Assembly (NCBI GenBank): GCA_963736005.1
Contig: CAVTNB010000001.1
Coordinates: 1,024,001 to 1,088,000, forward strand
Length of the DNA stretch: 64,000 nucleotides
Direction of reading: 5' to 3'
Source: an uncultured Pseudomonadota bacterium
Lineage (GTDB): Bacteria; Vulcanimicrobiota; Vulcanimicrobiia; Eremiobacterales; Eremiobacteraceae
The notes under the pieces are model-generated. The model ran no database searches. It saw only the letters and a program-made list of their open reading frames with translations, and was not told the DNA's origin. This document shows positions 5,973-64,000 of the stretch, piece by piece (the stretch's first letter is position 1; the number at the start of each line of letters is the position of its first letter). Made by a program: the position numbers and the translations under genes.

Positions 5973-6015
5973 CGACCAGGATGAATTCAGGCTTGTGAGA
6001 GCGCATTGCTCTGCT

Positions 6016-47096: not shown

Positions 47097-47687
47097 ATGA
47101 CAAAGCCGGAAAGAGTCCTGGCTCTCGCCGGTATCGGCGTCATCGCAAGTGCGGTTCTGTTGGTCACCTACGTGACCCACTCGAACGCCGATTCCCAGCC
47201 GAGCGGCTGCGGCGCGCAGCGAGCGAAGCTCGAGCAGACGCTCGATCAAGTCCGATTCGCCATGTCTGCCCAACATGCGGTCTCGAGCGCGCTCGAGTAT
47301 TCGGATCAATCACGGCTGGCTTACTATAATGACATTGCCGCGATGCGCCGACAGCTCGCCGGTTCGAACCATAGCTCAGTTCAGCACGATCTCGTGCAGG
47401 CTTCGGTTCTTCTGAGCGACCAAGAAGCACCCATCTCACAGGCGCACGCGATCACCGCGCAAGCCAAGCATGAATTGCAGGGCGCTTTGCCGCTGGTCAA
47501 CGAAGCCGCGCAGGATCTGCAAGAAGGCGATTGCAGCGCGTTAACCCTCACCATGGAGCGCTCGGGCTGGCCCAAGGACCATCTCCTCGGTCAGTTGGCG
47601 TCCGCCGCGCGCCTCAACAGCGTCGTGAGCGAGCAACTCGACTCAGCGCTCGCACTGATCACGCACGCGCAGCATTTCGTTCGCTAA
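47097..47687 (+). CDS. hypothetical membrane-anchored or secreted helical protein
   Basis: N-terminal hydrophobic segment, Ala/Gln/Leu-rich helical body, two Cys; fills the gap before a REP. Confidence 0.6.
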   Translation: MTKPERVLALAGIGVIASAVLLVTYVTHSNADSQPSGCGAQRAKLEQTLDQVRFAMSAQHAVSSALEYSDQSRLAYYNDIAAMRRQLAGSNHSSVQHDLVQASVLLSDQEAPISQAHAITAQAKHELQGALPLVNEAAQDLQEGDCSALTLTMERSGWPKDHLLGQLASAARLNSVVSEQLDSALALITHAQHFVR

Positions 47688-47699
47688 ACGGATACCGAA

Positions 47700-47753
47700 C
47701 GCGCGAATAAATTCGCGCGACTACAGTCGATGGCGGCGCGCCATCGCCCCTAC
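47700..47753. repeat. REP class B (47700-47724) plus a second GTAG-tagged hairpin (47728-47753)
   Basis: CGCGCGAATAAATTCGCGCGACTAC and CGATGGCGGCGCGCCATCGCCCCTAC. Confidence 0.8.
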
Positions 47754-48679
47754 GTGATGCGATGGGCGGCCGCGGTTTGCGCGATACCGTCCGCGTAGCT
47801 TGTCTTGCGGATCGGTCCGAGAACCAAGGCGAGCTTGCTATCGTCGAGGATGACTGGGTCGCTCTGCAGATACTGCATTTCAACGAGTTCGCGCATCACG
47901 GGGTTGAAGAGGCCGACGACCCGCAACATCGTCGTCGTGACGACACGCAACTTGAGCTGCTGTCCGAATTGCTTGTAGATACGCGTGGCAAACTCGCGCG
48001 TCGTGGTCGTTCCTGGCCCTGCCACGTTGTACGCCGTTCCGTAGACATCATCTCTTGCAGACAAGTCGAGGACCACAGGACCGACATCGTGCGTATACAG
48101 CCATTCGTGAGGCCGGTCGATGGGCGCAAAAACGGGTGCGGGCTTGCCGTCGCGCGCGGCTTTGAAGATCTCATTCGCGACGCTGTTTTCCGCGTCGGCC
48201 GAGTAAAAGTCGGGAAGGCGCAGAACGAGCGTTCCAAGTGCGGAGGAATTGGCAGCCAGCGCAAGGTCCTCTTGCTGCTTGCGCATGCGTCCTTTATAGG
48301 TTTGCGGATTGCGAGAGTGCGTCTCATTAACCAGCGTTGCGGTCGGCTTGCCGTAGCTGTAGACGTTTGAGATCACAATGAGTTTGCGGACGTTTTGCGC
48401 GCGCGCAGCGTCAACGGTCCGCTGCATGAGGAGTGGATGCAGCTCGAAGTGGTTATAGGGAACTCCGACAGCATGGACGATCGTATCCAACCCAGCAGCC
48501 GCGCGACTCGCGTCAGCTGGGTCGGTGAGGTCGGCGGCGACCTGCTCGTGAGCAGAACCAAAAGCCGATTGCAGCGCTGCTGCGCGCCTCCCCACGACTC
48601 GTACAGGCACGCCCCGTCGTTGTGCTTGCGCTGCGACTGCCTTTCCAATGGCGCCAGCAGCTCCGAATATTCCGAGCAT
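47750..48679 (-). CDS. NAD-dependent epimerase/dehydratase (atypical SDR)
   Basis: IFGAAGAIG, SNVYSYG, KGRMR, RLPDFY. Confidence 0.85.
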   Translation of the reverse strand: MLGIFGAAGAIGKAVAAQAQRRGVPVRVVGRRAAALQSAFGSAHEQVAADLTDPADASRAAAGLDTIVHAVGVPYNHFELHPLLMQRTVDAARAQNVRKLIVISNVYSYGKPTATLVNETHSRNPQTYKGRMRKQQEDLALAANSSALGTLVLRLPDFYSADAENSVANEIFKAARDGKPAPVFAPIDRPHEWLYTHDVGPVVLDLSARDDVYGTAYNVAGPGTTTTREFATRIYKQFGQQLKLRVVTTTMLRVVGLFNPVMRELVEMQYLQSDPVILDDSKLALVLGPIRKTSYADGIAQTAAAHRIT

Positions 48680-48705
48680 CGCCCGCTACGCTTTGGGTGG
48701 TGGGA

Positions 48706-50256
48706 TTAGTCGGGTTTGGAGAACCAACCCGAAGGCTCCACAGCCAAGTTCACGTTGATCTGCTTGACTTCAGTATACGCCTCGAAACCGTACGTACCGA
48801 GTTCCCGGCCGATGCCCGACTGTTTGTAGCCGCCCCATGGCGCTTCATTATATGTGGGGTGATAGGTGTTGATCCAGGTTATGCCGGCTCGCAGTTTGCG
48901 GATGACACGATGAGCCTTTGCGATGTCGTTCGTGAAGACGCCGCCGGCCAATCCGTAGATGGTATCGTTGGCGAGTTTGATCGCCTCTTTCTCATCCTTA
49001 AAAGTTTGCACGACGAGCACCGGGCCAAAGATCTCTTCTTGAACGATCCTCATGTCCGGCTTGGTATGCGTGAAGATCGTTGGCTCGATAAAGTTGCCCT
49101 TGCGCCCCAGCTCTCCTGGCAGACGGCCCCCACCGCACTCAAGCTTGGCGCCTTCTTCTATGCCTGTCTTAATGTAGGCTTCGATCTTTTCCTCATGCGC
49201 GCGACTGACAATCGGCCCCATTTCGGTTTGGGGATCGAAACCATCTCCCACACGGATTTGTTTTGCTCGATCGACGACCGCCTTCACGAATTTGTCGGCA
49301 ATCGACTGTTCCACGAGCAGCCTCGATCCTGCCGAACAGACTTGACCGGCGTTGGCGAAGATGCCAAACAGCGCGTAATCAACTGCGGTGTCGAAGTCGG
49401 CGTCAGCGAACACGATGTTTGGTGATTTGCCGCCCAACTCGAGCGAAATCTTCTTGAGATTGCCGACGGCGGCTTGCATGATCGCACGGCCCGTCTTCGT
49501 GCCGCCAGTGAACGCAACTTTGTCAACCAGCTCGCTGGCTGCAATCGCATGGCCGACGACTGGGCCCGACCCGAGGACAATATTGACGACGCCCTTGGGG
49601 AAGTCCAACTCCTCGATCCAGGTCGCGAGGCGAAGAGCGGTCAGGGGCGTCAGTTCCGATGGCTTGAGCACGCAGGTATTGCCAGCCGCAAGCGCAGGTG
49701 CGAGCTTCCATGATGCCATCAACAAGGGATAGTTCCAGGGAATAATCTGTCCGCACACACCGATTGGTTCGCGCACCACCATTGTCTGAGATGCCGCAGG
49801 GACATCGAAAGTCTGGCCGCTTGGTTTGGTCGCAAGCCCGGCATAGTAGCGGAAACAGTTAGCGGCATCCGCCATGTCGTATTCCGTCTCGCGCAGGGGC
49901 TTGCCGTTATTGAGCGTCTCGATGCGCGAAAGCTCGGTCGCGTTTTCATCGATGCGTTCGGCGAGACGAAAGAGCAATTTCGCGCGATCTTGCGCGAGTG
50001 AATCACCCCACGGTCCTTCGTAGAACGCTTTGTGAGCGGCCCGGATGGCGCGCTCGGCATCTTCTTTCGTTCCCTCTGCGACCTTTGCAATTACCTCGCC
50101 GTTCGCCGGGTTCACGAGATCGCGGGTTCCACCATCGGAGGCAGCGGTCCATTCGCCGCCGATCCACATGAGAAATGCGTCGCCCTTGCGTTTGAGATTC
50201 TTGAACAGCTCCGCGGCACGAGGCGCGGAACTCGGCTTGGCTTCAGCGGTTGCCAT
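48706..50256 (-). CDS. aldehyde dehydrogenase (aminoaldehyde/betaine-aldehyde type; probable 4-aminobutyraldehyde dehydrogenase)
   Basis: IIPWNYP, KPSELTP, LELGGKSP, GQVCSAGSR, EEIFGPV; follows patA. Confidence 0.88.
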   Translation of the reverse strand: MATAEAKPSSAPRAAELFKNLKRKGDAFLMWIGGEWTAASDGGTRDLVNPANGEVIAKVAEGTKEDAERAIRAAHKAFYEGPWGDSLAQDRAKLLFRLAERIDENATELSRIETLNNGKPLRETEYDMADAANCFRYYAGLATKPSGQTFDVPAASQTMVVREPIGVCGQIIPWNYPLLMASWKLAPALAAGNTCVLKPSELTPLTALRLATWIEELDFPKGVVNIVLGSGPVVGHAIAASELVDKVAFTGGTKTGRAIMQAAVGNLKKISLELGGKSPNIVFADADFDTAVDYALFGIFANAGQVCSAGSRLLVEQSIADKFVKAVVDRAKQIRVGDGFDPQTEMGPIVSRAHEEKIEAYIKTGIEEGAKLECGGGRLPGELGRKGNFIEPTIFTHTKPDMRIVQEEIFGPVLVVQTFKDEKEAIKLANDTIYGLAGGVFTNDIAKAHRVIRKLRAGITWINTYHPTYNEAPWGGYKQSGIGRELGTYGFEAYTEVKQINVNLAVEPSGWFSKPD

Positions 50257-50316
50257 TTTCTTGATTCCTTTTCGACTTGGTTGAAATCGGTTAAGGCGTT
50301 TGCCAGCCAATCACCG

Positions 50317-51735
50317 CTACATTGCGGCGAGGCACTCCGCCAACGCCTTGCAGACGTAATCCGCCTGGTCCTCTGTCAGTGTCAGCGGCGGCTCGACCCG
50401 AATGACGCGGGCGTTGACGAGCGTGCCCGAGACAAGCACGCCGCGGTCGAGCATGGCTTTGCTGAGTTTGAAGCCTAGCTGGTCGTTGGGGAACTCCATT
50501 GCCATGAGCATGCCCTTGCCACGAAGATCGATGATGATATTGCTGTACCCTCGTGCCGCCTCGCGCAGGCCCGCAAGCATGCGATCGCCCATGCGCGCGG
50601 CTCGTTCGGGCAGCCGCTCCTCGATGAGGACATTGATTGTCGCAAGTGCCGCCGCACACGCGAGCGGGTTGCCCCCGAACGTCGTCGTGTGCAAGAACGG
50701 GTTGCCAAATAAGCGCGAGAAAACAGCTTTGGTGCCCACCACTGCGCCGGCCGGCATAACTCCGCCGCCAAATGCTTTGGCCAGACACATGAGATCAGGA
50801 GCGACACCCCAATGCTCGCAGCAGAACATCTTGCCGGTGCGGCCCATCCCGGTCTGCACTTCGTCCAAAATAAGCAGCGCCCCGAACTCATCGCAGAGTG
50901 CGCGCACACCGGGGAGGTAGTCGTCGCTCGGAATATTGACGCCGCCCTCACCTTGAATCGGCTCTAAGATCACGGCGCCAACTTCTTCTCCGACCGTCTT
51001 GAGCGTCTGCATGCGCCACCGTAACGCGGCGAGATCGTTGAAGGGCACGTGCTCGATGTTGGGCAGCATAGCCCCGAACGGACGGCGAAACTCGCCCTTT
51101 GCGCTGACGGAGAGCGCGCCCATGCTCTTACCGTGAAAGCCTTTCGTCGCCGCAACAATTGTTTGCTTCGCCGGATCGAAAGCGCGCGCGAGCTTGAGTG
51201 CGGCTTCGATCGTCTCGGTTCCGCTATTGCAGAAAAACGCGTATTCAAGGTTGCCCGGCGTGAGCATGGCAAGTGCCTTCGCGAGCATCGCGCGCAGTGG
51301 ATCGAGCAAGTCTTGGCTGTGCAAGGCCTGCCGTTTGAGCTGGTCCGTGACGGCCTTGACGACCTTGGGGTGGCGATGACCGACATTGTAAATTCCAAAA
51401 CCGCCGAGGCAATCGATATATTCCTTGCCGGCGACATCTCGATATGCATTCGCTCCGGCGTCGCCCCATTCGACGACCGCTGCGGCGTGCTCAACAGCCG
51501 TGGCCTTACGGTATTCGAGAAACCCCGGATTGACATGGTCGCGGAAGCCCTTGACCGTTTCCGCGATGACCCACTCCGCGTCGTCCGCGTCGATCTCCGG
51601 CTTCGCGATAAGATCGAGCACGCGCTGCGTGTAGGCAAAGACCTCTGCATCCGGGCGCTTGCCGTGCGTGTTGCGGTCGGAGTCGATCTGAAGATCAGCT
51701 GCTTTATTTTTCTTTTGACTATCGATAATTTGCAT
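50317..51735 (-). CDS. patA: putrescine aminotransferase (class III PLP)
   Basis: FRDHVNPGFLEYRK, DCLGGFGIYNVGHRHP, LHSQDLLDPLRAMLAK, LAKAFGGGVMP closely recall E. coli YgjG/PatA. Confidence 0.88.
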   Translation of the reverse strand: MQIIDSQKKNKAADLQIDSDRNTHGKRPDAEVFAYTQRVLDLIAKPEIDADDAEWVIAETVKGFRDHVNPGFLEYRKATAVEHAAAVVEWGDAGANAYRDVAGKEYIDCLGGFGIYNVGHRHPKVVKAVTDQLKRQALHSQDLLDPLRAMLAKALAMLTPGNLEYAFFCNSGTETIEAALKLARAFDPAKQTIVAATKGFHGKSMGALSVSAKGEFRRPFGAMLPNIEHVPFNDLAALRWRMQTLKTVGEEVGAVILEPIQGEGGVNIPSDDYLPGVRALCDEFGALLILDEVQTGMGRTGKMFCCEHWGVAPDLMCLAKAFGGGVMPAGAVVGTKAVFSRLFGNPFLHTTTFGGNPLACAAALATINVLIEERLPERAARMGDRMLAGLREAARGYSNIIIDLRGKGMLMAMEFPNDQLGFKLSKAMLDRGVLVSGTLVNARVIRVEPPLTLTEDQADYVCKALAECLAAM

Positions 51736-51752
51736 GATGCCTTTTCGTTGTT

Positions 51753-53039
51753 TTAGGTTAGGACGGCGGAGACCGCCTCGTCGAGGCGATCCAACGCGCT
51801 CTCGAGATCTTCTTTGTCGATGATGAGCGGCACGAGCACTCGAATGATGTTGCGTTTCACACCGGCGGCCATGAGCAGCAATCCTCGACCGCGCGCTTCT
51901 TCGCCAATGCGCTGCACGATTGCAGACCCGGTCATCTTGCCATGGTCTTGGAATTCGAGCGCTCTCATTGCGCCGAGGCCGCGCACGTCCCCGATGGCGC
52001 GATGCTGCCGCTTGAGCTCGTTGAACCTGTGTTCGAGCCGCTTGCCGATTTCCACGGCGCGCTCGAGAAGATGGTCTTCCTCAATGATATCGAGGACAGC
52101 CAGCGCTGCTGCACATGCTAGCGGATTCCCCCCAAATGTTCCACCAAGTCCACCAGCGGTGGGAGCGTCCATGATCTCAGCCTTACCTATGACGCCCGCA
52201 ATGGGAAGCCCGTTGGCGATGCTCTTGGCTACTGTGATCAGGTCGGGCTCGACCTCCGCGTGCTCGATCGCGAACATCTTCCCGGTGCGCCCATAGCCTG
52301 ACTGAATCTCATCCGCAACCAGCACGATGCCGTGCTCCAGCGTGATCGCCCGCAGCGCCTTGAGGAACTCGATCGGAGCAGGCACAAACCCGCCTTCGCC
52401 AAGCACTGGCTCGATGACCATCGCAGCGATGCGATTGGGCGCGACTTCTGATTCGAACAGCTCGTTGAGCGCCTCGAGCGCCCTGCGAGCGCTCCAGCCA
52501 TGGAATTCGTAGGGATAAGGTACGTGGTAAACCTCGTTGGCGAAGGGCCCAAAATTTTGCTTGTATGGATTGTTCTCGCCCGTCATCGTGAGCGCCAACA
52601 ACGTTCGCCCGTGAAAACTATGATGAAACGCAACCACGGCCGGGCGCCCAGTGTGCATGCGGGCGATCTTGATCGCGTTCTCAACGGCCTCCGCGCCTGT
52701 GGTCACAAAGAATGTCTTCTTCTTCGACGGACCAGGCGCGAGCTTGTTCAAACGCTCCGCCAACTCCACATAGCCTTCGTACATTGCAACTTGGAAGCAC
52801 GTGTGCGTAAAGCGCTCGAGCTGTTCGGCCACGGCCTTGCGCACTTTGGGATGAGAGTGGCCGACATTGACCACCCCGATCCCGCCAACAAAATCGATGT
52901 ATTCCTTGCCGTCGACATCCCAAAGCTTCTCACCGAGCGCGCGGGCAGCAAAAATTGGATGCGTGTTCCCTACGCCTCGTGGAATTTCAGACGCGCGTAA
53001 ATCGAGCAGTGCCTTTGTTTGCGACGCCGCGAGGGCCAT
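51753..53039 (-). CDS. gabT: 4-aminobutyrate aminotransferase
   Basis: IPRGVG, DFVGGIGV, FTHTCFQV, TGAEAVENAIKIAR, EPVLGEGGF, DEIQSGYGRTG. Confidence 0.9.
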   Translation of the reverse strand: MALAASQTKALLDLRASEIPRGVGNTHPIFAARALGEKLWDVDGKEYIDFVGGIGVVNVGHSHPKVRKAVAEQLERFTHTCFQVAMYEGYVELAERLNKLAPGPSKKKTFFVTTGAEAVENAIKIARMHTGRPAVVAFHHSFHGRTLLALTMTGENNPYKQNFGPFANEVYHVPYPYEFHGWSARRALEALNELFESEVAPNRIAAMVIEPVLGEGGFVPAPIEFLKALRAITLEHGIVLVADEIQSGYGRTGKMFAIEHAEVEPDLITVAKSIANGLPIAGVIGKAEIMDAPTAGGLGGTFGGNPLACAAALAVLDIIEEDHLLERAVEIGKRLEHRFNELKRQHRAIGDVRGLGAMRALEFQDHGKMTGSAIVQRIGEEARGRGLLLMAAGVKRNIIRVLVPLIIDKEDLESALDRLDEAVSAVLT

Positions 53040-53056
53040 GGTCTACCTTTCGAACC

Positions 53057-53081
53057 GTCGCGAATAAATTCGCGACACTAC
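53057..53081. repeat. REP class B (GTCGCGAATAAATTCGCGACACTAC)
   Basis: Hairpin plus CTAC, in the gabT leader. Confidence 0.78.
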
Positions 53082-53111
53082 ATTTTGGGCGTTAAATGGG
53101 GGTTCAATTAA

Positions 53112-53156
53112 AGTGTACCTGGTTGCGGGGGCAAAAACTATGTAAGTAGAATACAA
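53112..53156 (-). promoter_or_regulatory. gabT promoter: TTGT-N8-TACATAGT-N19-TACACT (putative PucR-family activator site + -10)
   Basis: Architecture identical to 54800-54844. Confidence 0.7.
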
Positions 53157-53189
53157 AAATAGCACCGATATTCATATGGGATTACAAGA

Positions 53190-54791: not shown

Positions 54792-54799
54792 CAGGTAAA

Positions 54800-54844
54800 T
54801 TGTCCGGCAGATACATAGTCTTAACGACCTGTTAAGAGTACACT
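54800..54844 (+). promoter_or_regulatory. TBDR promoter: TTGT-N8-TACATAGT-N19-TACACT, with internal palindrome TCTTAAC-N5-GTTAAGA
   Basis: Architecture identical to the gabT promoter. Confidence 0.7.
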
Positions 54845-54861
54845 GGTTGGGGCGGTAGAGG

Positions 54862-54886
54862 AGCGGATCTAAAGGTCCGCTGCTAC
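54862..54886. repeat. REP class C (AGCGGATCTAAAGGTCCGCTGCTAC)
   Basis: Hairpin plus CTAC. Confidence 0.78.
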
Positions 54887-54930
54887 ACTAGATTTCTTAG
54901 CGTTCGTTGCGTTCTAAGGGAGATGAGCCT

Positions 54931-57900
54931 GTGTCGCTTCGCAAGCTAGCGGTTGTCGCATTTGCCATCGCGTTGTTCGGATTGTCGGCGCTTCCCGGCT
55001 CCGCTGGAACCACCGGTGGTATTCACGGAAGGGTGGCTGACATTACTAGCGGGCAACCCATTGCCGGGGCAGATGTCACCGCAGCGTCTCCGTCGCAAAC
55101 TGAAACGCGGTCGACCGACAGCTTGGGGTACTACGCGTTCATTTCGCTGGCGCCCGACACGTATACCGTCACCGCGAAAAAGGATGGCTACACGCTCGAG
55201 CAAGTTCCCGGCGTCACGGTCATCTCCGACCAGAACCGCGCGGTTGATATCAAGATGCAGTCAGCGCTCAAGACGATTGCACGCGTCGCAATTCGGGCGA
55301 CCGGAGGCCTCGTTCGCTCAGGCGTCGTGAGCGACGTTTATTCCATCAACGCAGCCCAGCAAAAAGTGGCTGCTCCCCTCGGTGGGGCTGGAGCGTTGAA
55401 CCAATCCTACGGGGCCATCGCGAGCGCGCCGGGCGTCAACTACGATCAAGGCCAGCAGGGCTGGTACCAAAATGTTTATATCCGCGGTGGAGACATCGAT
55501 CAAGTTGCCTATGAGTTCGATGGCGTTCCGGTCATTCGCGAATCTGACCAAGGCGCGGTCACGACACTGACGAGCTTGGGGCAAGCGGAGGTACAGGTGT
55601 ACACAGGCGGCACTCCCGCCTCTGCCGATGCACCGGGCCTCGCAGGCTACATCAACCAAGTTGTCAAGAGCGGCTCCTACCCAGGGTATGCAAGTTTCAC
55701 TGGCGGCATCGGTGGGCCGACGCTCTACAATAAGGGCACCTTGGAAGTAGGAGGCGCAACCCCAGATCGGCGTTTCTCATACTACGTGGGCACGCAACTC
55801 GTCGCGCAGGATTACCGCTTTGGCGACCAGTTCAACGGCGCGAGCAACCCGCTTTTTTTCTATCCGATCGGGATCGGGAATCAGTTTCCGCCTCCCGCAG
55901 GCCCGTTTGCAGCAATCCCAACTCCGTTAAACACCGCCGTCTGGGACGGGTCCTCCCAGTGGTTGTTCGGGCCGGGCACTGCAAACGCGATCGCGAGTGT
56001 CGGCGATCAGGAAACGATTGCTAACTTCCATTTTGGGCTGCCACACCGTCACGACTCGAGCACAGACGACATCCAGCTGCTCTACGATAACAGCCTGATC
56101 GTCCAAAAGTTCTATGGATCGGCGTTCGATCAGGGCCTTCCCGCAATTGTGGCTGAGAACGGAGCGCCACTAGGTTACTTTGATGGCTATGCCTACAACG
56201 GGCAAGTGTTCGCGCCGCCCGTGGCTGGACTCGTGGGGCCAGACTTATTCCCGAATTCGCCGCAAAATCGTGCGCAGTTTTCGCAACTGCCAATCCTAGA
56301 GCGTGAGGGCTCCCAAAATGGTGTTGCGCTCAGCAAGTTTCAGTACCAACGCAATATTAATGAGAGATCTTATCTGCGCTTTGACGCATATACGGACTAT
56401 GCAACCTGGTTCATCAGCGGGCCGGTGAGCGCCAATTTGCCTTTCGGGGGCCAGCTCCCGGACTACGAGGTGAACGAGCATAAATATGGCGGCAAGCTCG
56501 ACTACTCGAATCAGCTCAACGACAAGAATCTCCTCGAGCTTACCGCTTCGTATCTTACCGCACATCTCGAGACGTTCTCGGGTCAGTTCGGCACATTCTT
56601 GGATTACGCGGAGCCTACATCAAATCTCGTCGATGCACGTGGCAATTGCTACGATTTCACAACAGGGAATTTTGCGGATTGTTTTCCACAGTTGGCGCCC
56701 GCTGGCTATCCGAACCCGACATCGCAGGGCTGCTTCAATCCTGTGCTTGGATGCACGGGGCTTGTTCCGGGGATGCCGCCGCCGGGCAGCCCGGCAGCAA
56801 ACAACAGCGCACGCTGGCTCGTCACCGAACCTGGGCCCAAAGCGCAGATCGACACAGTCAAGCCGTATTTCTCAGGCTTCTCCGCCAACGATCAGTGGCG
56901 ACCGAACGACAAGCTGACGATGAATATCGGTGCGCGAGTCGATCTTTTCGACTACCGGCTCGACGACTTGGTCGACGGCTATCCTGCGCGCGCCTTCTGG
57001 TACGCCGCGTACAACCGCGAGAATTGTTTTGGCCCCGGCTTCAACGCGCCGTACCTGGGTGCGCTGAACGCAGCAACCGGCGCTTTTGCGTGCAATCTCG
57101 GTGGCACGCACACGAACCTGCAAAATTTCGGCGGAGGTACGATCTCGGAACGAATCTGGCAGCCCCGCTTCGGCGCAACGTATTCGGTCAATCCCGACCT
57201 GGTCTTGCGCGCGACCTACGGACGGTACGCACGACCAGCTGCCACCTCGTATCAAGAGTACAACGTCATTCAGCAAGACTCGCCACAGTTTATCAGTACT
57301 TTCCTCAACATGGGTTACAATACGCCCATCCACTACCTGCACGCAGATACGGCGAACAACTTCGATTTCTCAGTCGAAAAGCGTCTGCATGGTACCGATA
57401 TGTCGTTCAAGTTGACGCCATATTATCGCACCACGCAGGGGCAAATTCAGTTCTTGTCTTTGAACGCGCAAGGCGTGTTAGCCGGTGTGAATGCGGGGCA
57501 GCAAAACTCGTACGGAGTAGAGTTCGCGTTCGACAAAGGCAACTTTTCGACTGACGGATTTGCGATGCAGGCCTCGCTCACGTATCTCAACAGCACGATC
57601 AAGTACGGCCCCCAACCGAACGGCCAAAATGTCATCGACCTCTTGAACAACTTCATCGAACAATACAATTCGTTCACGTCCGCATGCGTGACGCCAAACC
57701 CGACAATTTGCGGCGCCTTTGGCGCGAACAACGCACACCCAACCTTTACCAACGGGACGACTGGCGTGGTGACAACCAATCCGTACTACAACCTAGCACC
57801 GCAGCCACTATTCGATCGCAACGCGCGCTACACGACCTACAGCACGATCCCGGCACCTTTCAATAATGCCAACAGTTTTGCGACCCCATTCGCGACCTCG

Positions 57901-58437
57901 CTGATCCTCAACTACAAGCATCAAAAGTGGTCGGTGACACCAAGCTTTACCTACAGCATTGGGGCATCGTATGGGTCGCCGCTCGTGTGGCCCGGGTACG
58001 ATCCAAGCTCGTGTGGCAACGTTTCCGCCGTCTCGCAACCAGCTCCAGACCTAACGCCAATGGGTTGCGCGAGCTCTATCTTCATACCAGATAAGTATAC
58101 AGGTCACTTTGATGCTCTCGGCGCCTTCCAACAGCCGTCACGGCTAACAGCAAACCTTGCCATTGGTCTGCACGTAAGCGATCGCATTGATGCGACGCTC
58201 ACCGGTTCGAGCTTGATCGATCGCTGCTGGCAGCGTGGCTTCCCATGGGATTCTCAAACGACGTGCGTCTATGGCCAACTCGCGTCGAACTTGCTTGCAC
58301 CGGCGGGCAACTTCGTGGCCAATCCGCCAATCCAGCTGGCTTACCCGTATGGCAGTTGGTACAATAATACAGAAATCGGCCAAGAGGGGCAGAAGTCGCC
58401 CACTACTTGGTCGCTGGAAACGACGTTTAAGCTCTAG
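54931..58437 (+). CDS. TonB-dependent receptor (Oar-like, large Cys-containing loops)
   Basis: Signal peptide, carboxypeptidase-regulatory-like domain, plug IRGG..YEFDGVP, WQPRFGATY, barrel C-terminus WSLETTFKL. Confidence 0.88.
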   Translation: MSLRKLAVVAFAIALFGLSALPGSAGTTGGIHGRVADITSGQPIAGADVTAASPSQTETRSTDSLGYYAFISLAPDTYTVTAKKDGYTLEQVPGVTVISDQNRAVDIKMQSALKTIARVAIRATGGLVRSGVVSDVYSINAAQQKVAAPLGGAGALNQSYGAIASAPGVNYDQGQQGWYQNVYIRGGDIDQVAYEFDGVPVIRESDQGAVTTLTSLGQAEVQVYTGGTPASADAPGLAGYINQVVKSGSYPGYASFTGGIGGPTLYNKGTLEVGGATPDRRFSYYVGTQLVAQDYRFGDQFNGASNPLFFYPIGIGNQFPPPAGPFAAIPTPLNTAVWDGSSQWLFGPGTANAIASVGDQETIANFHFGLPHRHDSSTDDIQLLYDNSLIVQKFYGSAFDQGLPAIVAENGAPLGYFDGYAYNGQVFAPPVAGLVGPDLFPNSPQNRAQFSQLPILEREGSQNGVALSKFQYQRNINERSYLRFDAYTDYATWFISGPVSANLPFGGQLPDYEVNEHKYGGKLDYSNQLNDKNLLELTASYLTAHLETFSGQFGTFLDYAEPTSNLVDARGNCYDFTTGNFADCFPQLAPAGYPNPTSQGCFNPVLGCTGLVPGMPPPGSPAANNSARWLVTEPGPKAQIDTVKPYFSGFSANDQWRPNDKLTMNIGARVDLFDYRLDDLVDGYPARAFWYAAYNRENCFGPGFNAPYLGALNAATGAFACNLGGTHTNLQNFGGGTISERIWQPRFGATYSVNPDLVLRATYGRYARPAATSYQEYNVIQQDSPQFISTFLNMGYNTPIHYLHADTANNFDFSVEKRLHGTDMSFKLTPYYRTTQGQIQFLSLNAQGVLAGVNAGQQNSYGVEFAFDKGNFSTDGFAMQASLTYLNSTIKYGPQPNGQNVIDLLNNFIEQYNSFTSACVTPNPTICGAFGANNAHPTFTNGTTGVVTTNPYYNLAPQPLFDRNARYTTYSTIPAPFNNANSFATPFATSLILNYKHQKWSVTPSFTYSIGASYGSPLVWPGYDPSSCGNVSAVSQPAPDLTPMGCASSIFIPDKYTGHFDALGAFQQPSRLTANLAIGLHVSDRIDATLTGSSLIDRCWQRGFPWDSQTTCVYGQLASNLLAPAGNFVANPPIQLAYPYGSWYNNTEIGQEGQKSPTTWSLETTFKL

Positions 58438-58446
58438 TCGCGCTAC

Positions 58447-58498
58447 GTAGCGGGCGACTGTAAAGTCGCCCTCGTCGTTGCGCGAATTTGTTCGCGCA
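58447..58498. repeat. REP class D (58447-58471) plus class B variant (58479-58498)
   Basis: GTAGCGGGCGACTGTAAAGTCGCCC and TGCGCGAATTTGTTCGCGCA. Confidence 0.78.
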
Positions 58499-58512
58499 CG
58501 TGAGGAGGCTCC

Positions 58513-60138
58513 ATGGCGCGCACCGCCTTGACGAATTTGTTCCAACGCCTGCACGCCGTGCACGCAGAGGCAGCGCATTCTGGTTTAGCGGTGGACGCGG
58601 TCGACGAGCTCCAGCGCACCCGGCGGCTGCGGCGTGCCGAGTTTCTTGCGGGCGCGGCGAGCGCCGGGGCCACACTTCTGGCTGCCTGCTCGTCGAAGCC
58701 CGCGCAGACTGTCATGAAGTCGGCGGGTGCACCACGAATTCTCATCATCGGAGGCGGTCTCGCCGGTGCGTCCTGCGCATATCGGTTGTGGAAAGCCGGC
58801 GTGCCCTTTACGCTGTGCGAAGCCAACTCAGCGTTTGGCGGACGCACGTGGACGTTGCGCAATTTCTTTGACGCCGGGCAGCTGGTCGAGCACGGCGGTG
58901 AGTTCGTATCGAGCGAGCACACCGCTTTGCGCGACTTGTGCGCCGAGCTTGACCTTCCGCTTGAGGATCTGCGCGCCGCGCAGCCACGGGATACCGAAGA
59001 AATTTACTATGTACGCGGCGAGAAGTATACGTGGTCGGAGATGCTGCGCGACTACGCGCCGATCTATCCCTCCATTGCAAATGCGGCCAAAGCGGCCCCG
59101 TTTCCCACGCTCTATAACCACTACACGCCGGCTGGTCTTCGCTACGATCGCATGTCGGCGCGCGAATTCATCGTCTCGACGATTCCCGGTGGTCTTAACT
59201 CGAGAATCGGTTGGTTGATGGACCTCAACGTCACAACCGAGAACGGCGGAGACTCAACCGACCAGAGCTCGCTCGAATACATCTACATGCTCGGGTACAT
59301 GCAAGCCCTGACCGGCCACAAACATCAGGCATTCTATTTGGTTGGCACCGACGAGCGCTATCACGTGATCGGAGGCAACGATCAAGTGGTCGGCACGATG
59401 ATCAAGCGCTTACCCCAGGCTAGCCTGTTTCCCAATCATGCTCTCGTCTCGCTCGTCCGGCGATCCGACGGCTCGTACACTGCCACGTTCAAATCTGCAC
59501 TGCAAACGACCGAGTTGCACGCAGATCATGTAGTGCTGGCGTTGCCCTTCACAACGCTGCGCAACTGTGATGTTGCGCGAGCAGGCTTTGAGCCCCGCAA
59601 GATCATGTCGATCGACAAACTGGGCATGGGGACGAACACAAAGATGCACGTGCAATTTCGCAATCGCCTCTGGTACACGCTCGGCTACAACGGCTACACC
59701 TATGCCGATAAGGATTTCCAACAGACATGGGAGGCTTCACGCCACCAAGCGGGTGAGGCGGGCATTCTGACGAGCTATTACGGAGGGTCGTGGGGAGCAA
59801 GCTTCAAAGCGCCGTCGTTTGGGCCGGCCTCTCCCCCATACGTCAACGAATTTCTCACCGGTCTCGAACCGATTTATCCGGGGAGCAGCAAAGCCCAAAA
59901 TGGCAAAGCGTACATGGACTACTGGACCGGCGATCCATGGCATCATGGATCGTACTCGTACGGGCGGGTTGGACAATATACAACGTTCATCGGCATCGAA
60001 CCGGTGCGCCAAGGCAACGTGCACTTCTGCGGCGAGCACTGCTCGATTAATTTTGGCGGCTTTATGAACGGTGCGGTGGAAACAGGTCAACGCGTTGCAG
60101 CGGTCATCGCCAAGGAAGTCGGCGCGCAAGCTGCGTGA
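58513..60138 (+). CDS. flavin monoamine oxidase family protein with a Tat-like/lipoprotein leader
   Basis: IIGGGLAG, EA....GGR, EHGGEF, HFCGEH...GFMNGAVETG; RRAEFL...LLAAC; GGAGG RBS. Confidence 0.85.
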   Translation: MARTALTNLFQRLHAVHAEAAHSGLAVDAVDELQRTRRLRRAEFLAGAASAGATLLAACSSKPAQTVMKSAGAPRILIIGGGLAGASCAYRLWKAGVPFTLCEANSAFGGRTWTLRNFFDAGQLVEHGGEFVSSEHTALRDLCAELDLPLEDLRAAQPRDTEEIYYVRGEKYTWSEMLRDYAPIYPSIANAAKAAPFPTLYNHYTPAGLRYDRMSAREFIVSTIPGGLNSRIGWLMDLNVTTENGGDSTDQSSLEYIYMLGYMQALTGHKHQAFYLVGTDERYHVIGGNDQVVGTMIKRLPQASLFPNHALVSLVRRSDGSYTATFKSALQTTELHADHVVLALPFTTLRNCDVARAGFEPRKIMSIDKLGMGTNTKMHVQFRNRLWYTLGYNGYTYADKDFQQTWEASRHQAGEAGILTSYYGGSWGASFKAPSFGPASPPYVNEFLTGLEPIYPGSSKAQNGKAYMDYWTGDPWHHGSYSYGRVGQYTTFIGIEPVRQGNVHFCGEHCSINFGGFMNGAVETGQRVAAVIAKEVGAQAA

Positions 60139-60141
60139 CGA

Positions 60142-60167
60142 GGGGCGATTTTCCAATCGCCCCCTAC
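60142..60167. repeat. REP class A (GGGGCGATTTTCCAATCGCCCCCTAC)
   Basis: Between convergent genes; its CTA is the peptidase stop codon. Confidence 0.8.
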
Positions 60168-60868
60168 AAGAGGATCTCTGGCTTGATCGATTCTTCTATG
60201 AGTTTGCCGGTGTGCAGGCGCAAACGGTACGCTCGCGCGCGCTGACGTGAGGTAACGATCCGTTCCAAGCGGTCATCGCGGTAGACAAGGGCAACGTTGT
60301 CGTCGGCAGCATAACCTCCAGGCAATCTACCTGACCTCACAAGCTGCCGGTACACCGGACGGCGCTTTGGCTCGCTGTCGTAATGCGGACAGAAACTCCC
60401 TCGTAAAAAGCCAAGACATCGCAGTGGCGCGTAACGACCAGGATACGAATCAGTCACCCCGCCTGAAAACCAGCACAACCCACCCGCGCTTTGACCCGCA
60501 AGCACAATGCCTCGCTCGTAGGCGGTGCGCATCGCCACGTCCAGACCCCACGCTTTCCAGAGGATCAACAAATTGCGTGTGTTACCCCCGCCGACATAGA
60601 TGACATCGTGCTTGAGAACAAATGAATGCAACGGCTCGAGTGGCTGCGCGTACAGGGAGAGGTGAGAAGGTTTTGCTCCGAGCTTCTTGGCCATTTTGTA
60701 GAACGTCGCGATGACGGTTTCCGAGTCTCCGACGGCGGTAGCGACACAGCACACGCGGGGTGACTCGCGCCCGGATTGCTCGAGCACGTATGCACACAAT
60801 GTTGGGTCAGGCTTCGTCGTGGAGAAGCCCCCGCCACCAATCGCGATAATGGTTCTTGCACGGCGCAT
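60164..60868 (-). CDS. peptidase E / S51 family (class I glutamine amidotransferase-like fold)
   Basis: IIAIGGG, IYVGGGNT, GQSAG (Ser nucleophile), SFCPHYD. Confidence 0.85.
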   Translation of the reverse strand: MRRARTIIAIGGGGFSTTKPDPTLCAYVLEQSGRESPRVCCVATAVGDSETVIATFYKMAKKLGAKPSHLSLYAQPLEPLHSFVLKHDVIYVGGGNTRNLLILWKAWGLDVAMRTAYERGIVLAGQSAGGLCWFSGGVTDSYPGRYAPLRCLGFLRGSFCPHYDSEPKRRPVYRQLVRSGRLPGGYAADDNVALVYRDDRLERIVTSRQRARAYRLRLHTGKLIEESIKPEILL

Positions 60869-60905
60869 GGAATTCGATACGATAGGCGAATTCCAAGCTC
60901 CGCTT

Positions 60906-61367
60906 ATGTCGTACCTCATTCGTGAACTTTCCATCGCCGAGCTGCCCGTGGTCACGGATCTCCGGCACGCAATGATTCGAGAGATCGAGGGAGAGGATTT
61001 GGATCTTGAGATTCCAGGGTGGCGCGAACGCTACGTCGCTTTTTTTGAAGGACATGCCCGCAAGTCTCGGGGGGCAGTCTGGGCAGCCGAGCAGGACGGG
61101 CATATCATTGGAATCGCCGCGGCTTATATGCCGACCAATCATCGGTCCGCAATCGTTGGCAGCGAGCAACTGTATATCTGCAACGTGTACGTCGTGCCCG
61201 CGCGGCGCCGTCAAGGGATTGGCAAAGCCTTGACGCTGCACGCGGTAGAATGGGCGCGCACGAAGCATTGCGACGTGGTGCGCCTGCGGACTTCGCGGAT
61301 GGGACGCCCGTTGTATGAGTCGGCAGGGTTCGAGCCATCCGACGAGATGGAGCTTTTTCTCAGGTAG
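60906..61367 (+). CDS. GNAT-family N-acetyltransferase
   Basis: YICNVYVVPARRRQGIGKAL, LYESAGF. Confidence 0.85.
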   Translation: MSYLIRELSIAELPVVTDLRHAMIREIEGEDLDLEIPGWRERYVAFFEGHARKSRGAVWAAEQDGHIIGIAAAYMPTNHRSAIVGSEQLYICNVYVVPARRRQGIGKALTLHAVEWARTKHCDVVRLRTSRMGRPLYESAGFEPSDEMELFLR

Positions 61368-61374
61368 TTCTCAG
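61358..61374 (+). promoter_or_regulatory. perfect TCTCAG-N5-TCTCAG direct repeat upstream of the small membrane protein
   Basis: TCTCAG-GTAGT-TCTCAG, 68 nt before ATG 61443; it overlaps the GNAT stop. Confidence 0.55.
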
Positions 61375-61380
61375 ATTGGT

Positions 61381-61405
61381 GGGCGACTTGACAGTCGACC
61401 GCTAC
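61381..61405. repeat. REP class D (GGGCGACTTGACAGTCGACCGCTAC)
   Basis: Hairpin plus CTAC. Confidence 0.7.
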
Positions 61406-61442
61406 ATGAGCTTATGGCTCGCAGCGCGAAGATGCTGTTATT

Positions 61443-61757
61443 ATGGAAAATCCTTCGTCTTCTCCAGCAGCGGTGCTCTACATGCGCCTGCACGTGTGGA
61501 GCTTCGCACTCGCTTGCGCGATCACTGCGTTACTTCTCGGCCTCATCGCGTGGCCCATTCACGCTATGATGATGGCACGTGCGGCCGTCAAATATGGGGT
61601 GTACCGCGGACCTTGGCACAACATGGCAGGACCGCACGCTCCGATGATGATGCATCACGGCTTTGGCGCTTGGCATCTGCTGATTTTTATGGTGGCGGCT
61701 GGCGTCGGGGGTGCGATTCTCGCCGCACTGTACAACGCGTTTGCGGTGCGGCGCTAA
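61443..61757 (+). CDS. small 2-TM membrane protein with a His/Met-rich loop
   Basis: Two hydrophobic helices flank HAMMM...WHNMAGPHAPMMMHHG..WH. Confidence 0.65.
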   Translation: MENPSSSPAAVLYMRLHVWSFALACAITALLLGLIAWPIHAMMMARAAVKYGVYRGPWHNMAGPHAPMMMHHGFGAWHLLIFMVAAGVGGAILAALYNAFAVRR

Positions 61758-63187
61758 GCGCTTAGCTCCTCAACTTCGCTCACCAGGTCCGCCTGAATTG
61801 CCTTGATCGTGTCGGGCTGGCGCATGCAGACGTACGCGAATCGCGCGAGCCCAATCGCAAGCAACGCTAAAAACACATACGGCAAGACGTTGTAGGGCGG
61901 CGCGGGCACCGGATAGACGCTGCCAATGGTTGCGATCGCCAGCATCGCGATGGACAAAATCGCCATGACGATGGGCGTCGCGCTCATTTCTCCCCGTCGA
62001 CGCAAGTAGAGCGGCGAGCCGATCGACACTAAGATGTAAGCGAACAAAAAGCCGAACGTCGCAACGGACCCCAGGTAGCCAAACGCGTCGAGCAGTGCCG
62101 CGTGCGAGATGATCAGGCCCAGCGGCGCCAGCAGGACGACGGCCGCCGCAATGGTCACCGCGACGTGGGGTGTTGCATGCACCTCGTGCGTGCCGGCCGC
62201 AGACGCATGCACGAGTCCATGTTTCGACATTGCGAAGATCACTCGCGCGCCGGCGTTGATGCATGCCAACGCACAGGCGAAAAAGCCGACGGTCGCGCCG
62301 GCCGCAAACAGGGTACCCAGGAGAGGAAGTCCAGCGATGTGCGAGAGCACGTTGAGCGGCGCATTTGACTGGCCAAGCGAGGTCGACTGGCCTTGGAAAG
62401 CATCGACGAGTGTGTACGACATGAAGGTGAAGAACGCACCGACGGCTATCACGGTCACGAGCACGGATCGGGGAATGGTACGCAACGGATTGCGCGCCTC
62501 ATGCCCGAGCGCGGTGGCACTCTCAAATCCGACGAAGCTAAAAAACGCAAGCACAAGCCCCTGGAGCATGGCTTTGGGTGACGCTCCCACAAGCGAGAAC
62601 TGCGCAGTGTCATACAACCGGCCGGTCTTGACGTAAAAAGCAAACGCGAGCAGCAGCACGACGCCGACCGAAAAAAACTCCAGACCTAACATGAATTTCG
62701 TCGAGAGTTCGATATCTCTGTACGCCAGGTACCATGCCCCGACGGCCACCGCGATCATGACGACCACCGTCACCACAAGACCCGCATTGTATCCAGAGAG
62801 GGCGTGCATGAGGACGGCAACGTAGTTGGCGGCTCCGCACAACGTCGCTCCACCGGTGATCAGATAGGCGATCACGAGCGACCAACCCGATATGACGCCC
62901 CAGGTTGGTCCCATCCCCTGCGCAACGAAGGTGTAGAGCGCGCCTGGCGAGGCCGACCGTTTTGCGAACTGGTTGATATGGTAGGTGACCAAGAGCAGGG
63001 CAACCGTTGAGAATGCATAGGTCAGCCATAACCCGCCGCCCGTAATAGCGAAGACCGCTGGAATGATGAGGGCCGGTGTCGCGGATGGCGCGATGTTGGC
63101 AACGGACTGGGCCACCACTTCAATGAAGGACAGGCAGTTGCGGCGCAGACCCGCTTGGGGAATGGGCAACAGTCCTTCTTTGATCAT
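61754..63187 (-). CDS. APC-family amino acid/polyamine permease
   Basis: AQSVANIAPS, SPGALYTFV, SFVGFESATALGHEARNP, ~12 TM helices. Confidence 0.9.
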   Translation of the reverse strand: MIKEGLLPIPQAGLRRNCLSFIEVVAQSVANIAPSATPALIIPAVFAITGGGLWLTYAFSTVALLLVTYHINQFAKRSASPGALYTFVAQGMGPTWGVISGWSLVIAYLITGGATLCGAANYVAVLMHALSGYNAGLVVTVVVMIAVAVGAWYLAYRDIELSTKFMLGLEFFSVGVVLLLAFAFYVKTGRLYDTAQFSLVGASPKAMLQGLVLAFFSFVGFESATALGHEARNPLRTIPRSVLVTVIAVGAFFTFMSYTLVDAFQGQSTSLGQSNAPLNVLSHIAGLPLLGTLFAAGATVGFFACALACINAGARVIFAMSKHGLVHASAAGTHEVHATPHVAVTIAAAVVLLAPLGLIISHAALLDAFGYLGSVATFGFLFAYILVSIGSPLYLRRRGEMSATPIVMAILSIAMLAIATIGSVYPVPAPPYNVLPYVFLALLAIGLARFAYVCMRQPDTIKAIQADLVSEVEELSA

Positions 63188-63220
63188 GCTCTCCCTCGTT
63201 TGGGTGCAGTGATGAACGAA

Positions 63221-63245
63221 CGCGCGAATAAATTCGCGCGACTAC
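63221..63245. repeat. REP class B (CGCGCGAATAAATTCGCGCGACTAC)
   Basis: Identical to 47700-47724. Confidence 0.82.
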
Positions 63246-63264
63246 CCGACATACCTGGCCCGTT

Positions 63265-63999: not shown

Positions 64000-64000
64000 C

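Follow-up and report, generated by a model that had tools for sequence, protein, structure and literature searches.

The question raised by the locus described here is why a large TonB-dependent receptor (TBDR) should be encoded directly upstream of a flavin amine oxidase and opposite genes for putrescine and 4-aminobutyrate (GABA) breakdown, and what such a receptor may carry. The locus lies at positions 47750-63187 of a 64,000-nucleotide stretch (the window; positions 1,024,001 to 1,088,000 of contig CAVTNB010000001.1) from an uncultured member of the Eremiobacteraceae, whose assembly comprises 2.84 Mb in 6 contigs with a completeness estimate of 84%. An open reading frame (ORF) map together with two family scans bears out the gene list of an earlier annotation of this DNA (the original prediction), which had placed the TBDR, the oxidase, a PucR-type regulator, an APC-superfamily permease, gabT, patA, an aldehyde dehydrogenase (ALDH) gene and some further genes in one amine utilisation locus. 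Comparison with relatives narrows this to a core of ALDH-patA-gabT divergent from PucR-TBDR-oxidase, usually joined by the APC permease. Functional coupling of the TBDR, the exported oxidase and the PatA/GabT route is, to our minds, well supported because conserved synteny, the phyletic pattern, incongruent gene trees and a shared operator unique in the genome all speak for it.

Oxidase and TBDR were both searched in 41 genomes of the class (40 relatives and the window's own), and 20 long loci were fetched and 11 short ones read for comparison; in the handles used below, G stands for a genome (G000 being the window's own), L for a locus, C for a contig, W for the window, f for a family and g for a genus. 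The TBDR gene sits directly upstream of the oxidase gene and on the same strand in 28 of the 41 genomes (20/25 in f1 and 8/16 in f2/f3). Another three (G004, G008, G024) cannot be judged as their contigs end inside or beside the oxidase gene, and nine hold neither an oxidase orthologue nor a TBDR match above paralogue level. Leaving aside the genomes flagged as unpublished (G008, G011, G013) gives 26/38 adjacent, 2 unjudgeable, 1 exception and 9 with neither gene. Scored as co-occurrence, both genes are found in 31 genomes (G004 counted with a TBDR fragment), the oxidase only in one, the TBDR only in none and neither in nine. The gaps between TBDR and oxidase measure about 0-150 nt, and the gene adjoining the TBDR is the oxidase, not a SusD-like gene, in every locus fetched. 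On the other side, gabT-patA-ALDH is divergent in 16/16 fetched loci that extend past the upstream side of the TBDR (L016, L017, L019-L022, L033-L035, L026-L032). Outer flanks vary between genera while the core persists. The synteny of TBDR, oxidase, PucR and patA/gabT, which had been put forward as a check on the original prediction, is clearly found in relatives. In G022 (L033) the oxidase is read in three overlapping frames and in L089 PucR and TBDR are each split into several pieces; these splits may be assembly frameshift errors or decaying genes.

The trees of the two partners differ from each other. Seventeen oxidase-linked TBDRs form one clade (SH-aLRT support 99) against 8 paralogues, among them the best matches of two oxidase-less genomes. 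For the oxidase, monophyly of the 20 TBDR-linked copies, a group set by synteny before tree building, is rejected (log-likelihood difference 129.7, p-AU 0.00023). In the 79-row oxidase tree, a branch of support 100 separates the f1 copies, placed among unlinked paralogues and some sequences from Actinomycetota and Acidobacteriota, from the f2 copies, placed with a Bryobacteraceae sequence; this tree is unrooted, comes from a quick search and does not tell which of the families replaced its oxidase. The oxidase lineage was thus replaced at least once beside a vertically inherited TBDR. Since the TBDR clade is single and the linked oxidases are not monophyletic, the pairing itself survived oxidase replacement, which is hard to explain without functional dependence.

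The two operons also share a candidate operator. A 44-bp motif (TTGT-N9-ACATAG-N19-GTACAC) occurs in the gabT-PucR spacer (53113-53156, minus strand, facing gabT) and a second 44-bp copy in the PucR-TBDR spacer (54800-54843, plus strand, facing the TBDR gene), so that one copy is oriented toward each operon. With 2 matches in the window, 0 in 100 window shuffles and no others in the 2.84-Mb assembly, the motif is unique to the locus, in agreement with the promoter sharing that had been predicted for gabT and the TBDR. The half-site TTGT-N9-ACATAG on its own has 4 genomic matches, by estimate about as many as chance would give. GTACACT holds TAcAcT, a -10-like hexamer, and the -35 is poor, with TGT-N9-ACA overlapping its position; such an arrangement would fit an activator-dependent promoter. 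The presumed activator of both operons, and presumed binder of the motif, is the PucR-family regulator encoded divergently from gabT (53190-54791, plus strand; PF07905 112.9, PF17853 (GGDEF_2) 57.4 and PF13556 (HTH_30) 57.9 bits), for which both the N-terminal PucR domain and the C-terminal PucR-type HTH were found. The PucR gene is found in every f1 locus that extends to its place, as well as in L026 and L114.

Across genomes, the motif tracks PucR. In relaxed form it lies upstream of the TBDR in W, L016-L019, L021, L022, L027, L033-L035 and L037 and on the gabT side in L016, L019, L020 and L038, with 1 match in 77 unlinked control loci (1.3 Mb); it was not found in L026, L036, L086, L089 or L114. 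In G030, a PucR copy of 50% identity is located 30 kb away instead of adjacent, and the motif is retained. In genus g13, no PucR orthologue was found at E<=1e-20 in the 4 genomes searched and the motif is absent from 5 loci, which suggests that the regulator may have changed over an unchanged gene cluster. The gabT-TBDR spacers of L028-L032 (g13) share another conserved sequence (...CTCGTACTCTCATAG...CTATTCGGCGAGTTTAAAG...). Other features of the intergenic regions are two GC-rich hairpins, one in the TBDR-oxidase spacer (58452-58471, GGGCGACT...AGTCGCCC) and one in the presumed TBDR 5' leader (54861-54884), where the sister genome has a different hairpin. Neither matches an Rfam family, and zero Rfam families reached gathering score within 46000-64000. 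In L086, an insert of 3.2 kb (3292-6463) without Ns separates PucR from the TBDR.

What sort of receptor is this? Its ORF (54907-58437, plus strand; likely start GTG at 54931 behind AAGGGAG) encodes 1168-1176 aa by the start chosen, with an N-terminal carboxypeptidase-regulatory-like domain (CarboxypepD_reg, PF13620, 63.4 bits), a plug (PF07715, 27.4 bits; cut-off 23.9) and a barrel (PF00593, 61.8 bits). The N-terminus, MSLRKLAVVAFAIALFGLSALPGSAG, resembles a Sec signal. The structural model is of moderate confidence (mean pLDDT 68.1), and the Foldseek matches listed for it are all TonB-dependent transporters (E 1e-19 to 2e-15, TM to target 0.52-0.67), including Fiu, PiuA, YncD, FpvA, FoxA, PqqU, OprC, FecA and FhuA. 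Between CarboxypepD_reg and plug, LKTIARVAIRA is a by-eye candidate for the TonB box, and the region (residues 112-138) is modelled at pLDDT <50. The 2.8-Mb genome has 24 Plug-domain matches, of which 22, that of this receptor included, are over cut-off. For the energising system, 7 TonB_C, 2 ExbD and 1 ExbB matches likewise pass their cut-offs, and several of these lie close together at C1:1.171-1.176 Mb. An outer membrane covered by lipopolysaccharide is reported for the sole cultured member of the phylum, and the phylum is described from oligotrophic habitats, in the abstract and excerpted text of PMC9758169.

The examined neighbours of 7 TBDR paralogues of the window's genome, as well as those of the best TBDR matches in two oxidase-less genomes, are without amine-catabolic genes; around the seven paralogues lie, among others, genes for creatininase, M48 peptidase and IclR, for an S9 peptidase and for a Dyp peroxidase, and efflux pump genes. 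The closest paralogue (G000:C1:2022263-2025706, L117; 45% identity) has a creatininase-family amidohydrolase on one side and M48 peptidase, IclR and GGDEF genes on the other, and its G009 orthologue groups with it in the tree. Another (G000:C1:59525-62947, L120) is split by one in-frame TGA into ORFs of 741 aa and 470 aa and may be a pseudogene or reflect a sequencing error. The window itself holds a second Plug match at about 30942-31199 (minus strand; G000:C1:1054942-1055199), within a 1147-aa frame that is another large TBDR.

The oxidase gene (58513-60138, plus strand; PF01593 150.7 bits, PF13450) starts 75 nt past the TBDR stop behind the ribosome-binding site GAGGAGG, and a terminator scan detected none between the two genes. 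FAD-binding motifs (GGGLAG, GGR) are visible in the protein. Its N-terminus (...RRLRRAEFLAGAASAGATLLAAC) combines a twin-arginine-type motif with a hydrophobic stretch and a lipobox-like LAAC, consistent with the export that the original prediction had assigned to it; the twin-arginine stretch RRAEFLAGAASAGATLLAAC, read by motif inspection, has relaxed spacing. Among the full-length family members (n=62), a canonical RRx[FLIV] motif is found in 39/62 and a canonical or relaxed motif plus hydrophobic stretch in 62/62; 11 of the 62 carry a lipobox-like cysteine. TatC is encoded in the genome at C2:946-1578. These features support predicted export of the oxidase by the twin-arginine translocation (Tat) route. 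A segment resembling 'MARTPL...' precedes the twin-arginine motif in 48/62 full-length members from Actinomycetota, Verrucomicrobiota, Chloroflexota, Bacillota and Eremiobacterota (window 58513-58620, oxidase residues 1-36; homologues in L036-L115), and residues 11-40 of the oxidase model are helical (block pLDDT 80-88). Segments preceding a Tat motif are usually not conserved; for this one, a role in chaperone binding or in anchoring is conceivable.

As for its chemistry, the oxidase model (pLDDT 89.1) has as nearest folds listed cyclohexylamine oxidase, monoamine oxidase (MAO) A, the putrescine-bound MAO of Thermoanaerobacterales and Rhodococcus putrescine oxidase (PuO), with Z 39-41 and Foldseek E of about 1e-33, and differences among these scores are too small for the model to name a substrate. 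Such a fold, of MAO/PuO type, makes a primary amino group the favoured site of oxidation. For the trimming of polyamines named in the original prediction, an attack on secondary amines is thus not the favoured chemistry, the fold appearing to differ in type from that of plant or yeast polyamine oxidase (PAO); neither PAO nor spermine oxidase (SMOX) figures in the top 50 of the fold listing, which does not exclude this activity. In profile comparison maize PAO (E 5e-29, over its C-terminal part only) and LSD1 are the farther matches. In the alignment with the Thermoanaerobacterales MAO, residues K377, Y481 and F517 stand opposite K, Y and Y, and K377 and Y481 are invariant across 56 family members; from the MAO literature, we take these positions to be the active-site lysine and two aromatic 'cage' residues facing the flavin. 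Where MAO-type enzymes have the covalent cysteine, the oxidase has Ser, which, going by the PuO/MAO literature, presumably means non-covalent FAD. An assignment as L-amino-acid oxidase (LAAO) was considered and rejected. The LAAO stretch AELGAMRIP aligns over the family consensus aEhgGelid, and its arginine, presumably the substrate-carboxylate binder (Arg90 of snake-venom LAAO, in a G-x-M-R-I/L-P stretch), faces L in the consensus and F131 in the window oxidase. No cytochrome c gene was found near the locus, C-x-x-C-H occurring in three short spurious frames (37-67 aa) only. According to the excerpted text of PMC12224317 (2025), a Tat signal plus an adjacent cytochrome c gene marks dehydrogenases in the flavin amine oxidase superfamily, and fast reaction with O2 was seen in most of the tested enzymes that have a Tat signal but no cytochrome c gene next to them. 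By analogy, O2 would be the electron acceptor here.

Which amine is degraded is best approached from the leftward operon. It is headed by GabT, a 4-aminobutyrate aminotransferase (51753-53039, minus strand; TIGR00700 563.2 bits, above the 506.65 cut-off), followed by the putrescine aminotransferase PatA (50317-51735, minus strand; NF008570 685.8 bits, above the 612 cut-off) and an aminoaldehyde-type ALDH (48706-50310, minus strand; PF00171 615 bits) as final gene of the conserved gabT-patA-ALDH unit. The best NCBIfam models for the ALDH are both below cut-off, namely betaine-aldehyde dehydrogenase (BADH; TIGR01804 644.6, cut-off 668.6) and aminobutyraldehyde dehydrogenase (NF010000 509.8, cut-off 615). 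In all 16 loci reaching that far GabT is kept, PatA orthologues are 70-97% identical and ALDH orthologues, in the same position, 66-97% identical. Together, PatA, ALDH and GabT point to putrescine or cadaverine as the likely entry compound, which would be converted via an aminoaldehyde to an omega-amino acid. A succinate-semialdehyde dehydrogenase gene was not found within the window's locus; further ALDH genes lie elsewhere in its genome, and some orthologous loci have a second ALDH that is below every equivalog cut-off. Primary-amine oxidation would turn putrescine into 4-aminobutanal, which would feed the ALDH directly, and spermidine into an aminoaldehyde able to break down to putrescine.

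A hint at the longer polyamines comes from genus g4 (L019/L020/L038/L040), in which the oxidase is followed by an omega-transaminase, an APC permease and a CoA-acylating (methyl)malonate-semialdehyde dehydrogenase (MMSDH; TIGR01722 568.8 against a cut-off of 448.5). These extra genes may be a beta-alanine module, as would be expected from the aminopropyl part of spermidine or spermine by analogy with the Pseudomonas route summarised in the excerpted text of PMC9397018. A similar pair exists in the window's genome at G000:C2:56922-59738 (L126 4922-7738), where an omega-transaminase (NF004718, 561 against 472) precedes an MMSDH-type gene and has an ammonium transporter upstream. The match of the MMSDH ORF to the 477-position profile is limited to positions 1-335, whereas a full-length query is covered to 97% by tblastn, a discrepancy that may come from a frameshift or assembly error. 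On the import side, tblastn of the window's genome found no YdcS/PotD-like binding protein. The APC-superfamily permease (61754-63187, minus strand; PF00324, PF13520) is single-copy in the genome by tblastn, and its closest solved structures are, weakly, cationic amino-acid transporters (E 3e-8). Its orthologue adjoins the oxidase in L018-L022, L033, L035, L026, L086, L089 and L114. Most f1 loci have the two side by side; in one they are 8 kb apart.

Similar neighbourhoods are met beyond the class. The oxidase family was surveyed in 80 of the 523 relatives found in a genome scan; this set partly overlaps the G-handle genomes and the counts of the two are not additive. In the neighbour census, ORFs were picked by a third-position GC score, and the oxidase was recovered in 77 loci. 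Within 6 kb, 20 of 49 Actinomycetota loci with a homologue (mostly Gaiellales and Solirubrobacterales) have at least one polyamine-type neighbour: a PotA-type ATPase in 14/49, a GabT-like transaminase in 13/49, a YdcS-like solute-binding protein in 13/49 and, in 12/49, an ALDH from the protein cluster represented by an aminobutyraldehyde dehydrogenase. Two of the neighbour representatives score above cut-off (PotA, TIGR01187 378 vs 355.6; aminobutyraldehyde dehydrogenase, NF010000 727 vs 615) and two below (GabT, 497.7 vs 506.65; YdcS-like binding protein, 360 vs 725). Thus, a second phylum, one that lacks an outer membrane, repeatedly has exported oxidases of this family encoded near genes for polyamine-type import and the GABA route, though not in every lineage.

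From all this we propose that the locus is probably a PucR-controlled regulon for the scavenging and catabolism of di- and polyamines, with two promoters carrying the same operator. Through the rightward operon, the TBDR would bring the amine into the periplasm, where the Tat-exported oxidase would oxidise a C-N bond, most likely turning a primary amine into an aminoaldehyde plus NH4+ and H2O2, and the APC permease would then carry the amine or its product into the cytoplasm. Through the leftward operon, PatA, the aminoaldehyde dehydrogenase and GabT would take putrescine or 4-aminobutanal via GABA to succinate semialdehyde. Which amine is taken up and which bond is oxidised are choices we infer, and a free polyamine, close variants included, is a reasonable and somewhat more likely than not candidate for the cargo of the receptor. 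The scheme of import, oxidation, permease and transaminases laid out in the original prediction agrees with the operator common to both operons, with the signal for export and with the neighbours of polyamine type seen in Actinomycetota; it does not extend to the S51 peptidase, GNAT and SDR genes, which are not conserved (see below). A more specific version would see the TBDR as a dedicated TonB-energised importer of free polyamines, obligately paired with a Tat-exported oxidase that converts the cargo upon its periplasmic arrival, the pair having been kept across two Eremiobacterota families despite oxidase replacement. This we put forward tentatively, at slightly less than an even chance; if true, the TBDR would be the first with polyamines as assigned cargo and its locus an amine counterpart of polysaccharide utilisation loci (PULs).

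Several observations weigh against this proposal and have to be set beside it. Synteny counts from related genomes are non-independent events, and one genome, G017, has the oxidase without the TBDR, its PucR running straight into the oxidase (L011, G017:C152, 1231-3325). The best TBDR match in G017 is paralogue-level (689 bits) and the assembly is of 380 contigs and 79% complete. Polyamines are small (about 88-202 Da) and elsewhere cross outer membranes via porins, so that a TBDR is not obviously needed, and PatA makes an oxidase that deaminates putrescine partly redundant. For the receptor, no TonB box could be assigned with confidence by eye, isoelectric points (4.7-5.5 in orthologues vs 4.6-6.0 in paralogues) give no charge signature of polycation binding, and the acidic position fixed in orthologues yet different in paralogues is D649 alone, which is uninformative. 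For the oxidase, the window's twin-arginine motif RRAEFL is the consensus plus one residue, the family profile is about equidistant from L-amino-acid oxidases (3e-50), MAO-A (3e-46) and putrescine oxidase (8e-44), with 4-methylaminobutanoate oxidase falling in the same E range, and a fold of the primary-amine MAO/PuO rather than PAO/SMOX type leaves the chemistry of any 'trimming' unclear. Finally, none of the four neighbour types was found within 6 kb in 29/49 Actinomycetota and 8/8 Verrucomicrobiota loci, and unlinked Eremiobacterota oxidase paralogues (L023-L025, L092, L110, L112 and others) are without TBDR or amine neighbours, being found next to SpoIIE/PAS proteins, helicases, multicopper oxidases and catalase-peroxidase.

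Could the same architecture serve a different cargo? Most of the TBDRs characterised to date import compounds whose size or scarcity makes porins unsuitable, and with its roughly 1170 aa the receptor is unusually large, so the cargo may be a larger amine compound, be it a polyamine conjugate (phenolamides from plants or moss, for example) or a long-chain or acylated polyamine, from which the exported oxidase, perhaps with other enzymes, would free a diamine or aminoaldehyde for the PatA/GabT route. That monoderm relatives export their oxidase despite having a Pot/YdcS-type importer would suggest extracellular processing before import, and the S51 peptidase and GNAT genes that follow the oxidase in three genera also speak for a larger cargo. 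Yet the conserved core includes neither a hydrolase nor an esterase or amidase, the paralogous TBDRs of this genome are equally large, which makes size uninformative, and the nearest-fold MAO/PuO-type enzymes act on small free amines; we therefore regard a larger cargo as unlikely, if still worth keeping in mind. Less probable again is that TBDR and oxidase form a general scavenger of nitrogen from primary amines (alkylamines, aromatic monoamines), which would release NH4+ in the periplasm and stand beside gabT-patA by virtue of a common regulon only. Cyclohexylamine and monoamine oxidases are indeed among the closest folds (Z 40.6-41.2), many oxidase family members occur outside a polyamine context and the oxidase lineage is exchangeable. 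Against it, the PatA/ALDH/GabT neighbourhood persists in 16/16 loci while other flanks change, one operator serves both operons, the accompanying APC permease is weakly related to cationic amino-acid transporters, and distant Actinomycetota homologues independently lie beside Pot/YdcS-type importers, aminobutyraldehyde dehydrogenase and GabT.

It may finally be argued that the adjacency is inherited gene order without shared function and that the TBDR imports an unrelated metal chelate or cofactor. All genomes compared are related, which makes order alone weak evidence, substrates of TBDRs are not readable from sequence, and one genome keeps the oxidase without the TBDR. However, mere inheritance sits poorly with an operator unique in the genome that is common to the TBDR and the gabT operon, with joint presence and absence (31 both, 1 oxidase only, 0 TBDR only, 9 neither), with pairing kept in two families with oxidases of different clades, with TBDR-oxidase gaps as tight as about 0-150 nt and with a core that persisted as its flanks were rearranged, and we consider it highly improbable.

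Genes at the margins of the locus appear not to belong to this core. The original prediction had counted a peptidase, an acetyltransferase and a short-chain dehydrogenase/reductase (SDR) among its parts, and conservation speaks against all of these. The peptidase S51 gene (60164-60955, minus strand; PF03575) and the GNAT acetyltransferase ORF (60711-61367, plus strand; PF00583), neither with a signal peptide seen, follow the oxidase in genera g1, g2 and g10 only, are absent from other loci and thus lie outside the conserved core; the real GNAT start is later than the ORF start, the first 55 residues being in another frame in the sister genome. So does the NAD-dependent epimerase/SDR-type ORF at the end of the leftward operon (47750-48679, minus strand; PF01370, PF13460), for which tblastn gave zero matches in 20 related loci, including L016 of the sister genome G002. 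A further frame, orf129 (61376-61765), has no family match and an Arg/Cys/Trp-rich translation and was taken as non-coding. In the flanks, a LarE-type sulfur transferase (63265-63999; TIGR00268 297.5 bits, cut-off 150) and a 2-oxoacid:ferredoxin oxidoreductase-type gene (43084-45030) have no evident link to the locus.

How does this arrangement compare with known systems? Catabolic loci built around TonB-dependent transporters include the SusC/SusD polysaccharide loci of Bacteroidota and the transporter-centred sugar loci of Xanthomonas and Caulobacter. As in these, the genes for the outer-membrane transporter, an envelope enzyme, a transporter of the inner membrane and cytoplasmic catabolic enzymes lie and are regulated together, with a regulator of their own, and, like SusC, the TBDR described here has an N-terminal carboxypeptidase-regulatory-like domain. 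Unlike in PULs, the inferred substrates are amines rather than glycans, the envelope enzyme is a predicted Tat-exported flavin oxidase and not a hydrolase, and the host belongs to Eremiobacterota. In contrast to SusC/SusD loci, there is no SusD-like gene among the scanned neighbours, Pfam scans of all genes in 47750-63999 having found no SusD-family domain, which makes the locus PUL-like but not a PUL. The oxidase shares its fold with the putrescine oxidases of Rhodococcus erythropolis (2yg3) and Arthrobacter (3rha) and the Thermoanaerobacterales MAO with putrescine (9h5p), at Z 39.3-40.0 and, for about 430 residues, a root-mean-square deviation of 2.5-2.6 Å; the Lys and the aromatic residues are retained in the alignment. 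Identity, however, is only 20-21%, and PuO and the Thermoanaerobacterales MAO are cytoplasmic, unlike the oxidase here with its twin-arginine signal, to which a lipobox is added in some genomes.

On the catabolic side, PatA and GabT above their equivalog cut-offs and an aminoaldehyde-type ALDH toward the operon end resemble the PatA-PatD/YdcW-GabT/PuuE route of E. coli, the putrescine aminotransferase route ('AMTP') in the excerpted text of PMC9397018. The E. coli route has ydcSTUV as neighbour, while the locus in question has a TBDR, a periplasmic oxidase and an APC permease, and no Pot/YdcS-type ABC importer was found. Similar logic, in particular to that of the g4 loci, is seen in the SpdH pathway of Pseudomonas aeruginosa, where a flavoprotein step comes before aminoaldehyde dehydrogenase, beta-alanine and GABA catabolism; according to the same excerpts, SpdH of this pathway ('SPDP') cleaves spermidine and spermine upstream of these steps, and no TBDR is described there for the pathway. 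SpdH differs in being haem-binding, going by the title of its structure paper, no haem motif or cytochrome having been found here, and it is not among the 60 sequence matches or 50 fold entries listed for the oxidase. NicA2 and Pnao are alike in MAO-type fold (Z about 36.5), Tat signal and periplasmic location (predicted for the oxidase here), but have an adjacent gene for a Sec-exported cytochrome c, which the locus lacks, and act on amines of nicotine pathways, as far as the excerpts of PMC12224317 go. In regulation, the nearest parallel is GabR of Corynebacterium glutamicum, described in the excerpted text of PMC7652997 as a PucR-type activator divergent from gabTDP that depends on GABA and binds inverted repeats in the spacer. 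The regulator studied here is likewise a PucR-family protein divergent from gabT, with a repeat-containing candidate site in the shared spacer, but it has the GGDEF-like middle domain that GabR lacks (PMC7652997, same excerpts), and the motif also precedes the TBDR-oxidase operon.

Judged by titles and the openings of abstracts, the literature searched did not yield a TBDR described for polyamines, and in the text retrieved of a 2022 review of bacterial polyamine metabolism (PMC9397018), which covers four routes plus acetylation, the phrase 'outer membrane' does not appear. The locus thus points to a possible route, not described before, for the energised uptake of polyamine-type amines. Along with it, a widespread family of flavin amine oxidases with predicted Tat export is defined; its recurrence near polyamine importers and enzymes of the GABA route in Actinomycetota suggests that part of bacterial polyamine catabolism takes place outside the cytoplasm. 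Large TBDRs of unassigned substrate are numerous in soil phyla, among them Eremiobacterota, Acidobacteriota and Gemmatimonadota, and in soil and litter polyamines commonly serve as a source of nitrogen. To one of these receptors the locus gives a concrete and testable cargo class, and high-affinity capture of polyamines would fit the oligotrophic habitats that the abstract of PMC9758169 reports for the phylum. Compared with the transporter-centred catabolic loci known before, what appears to be new is a different type of envelope enzyme and, by inference, a new substrate class, so that the design of receptor, envelope enzyme, permease and regulator would be extended from glycans and metal chelates to nitrogen-rich amines.

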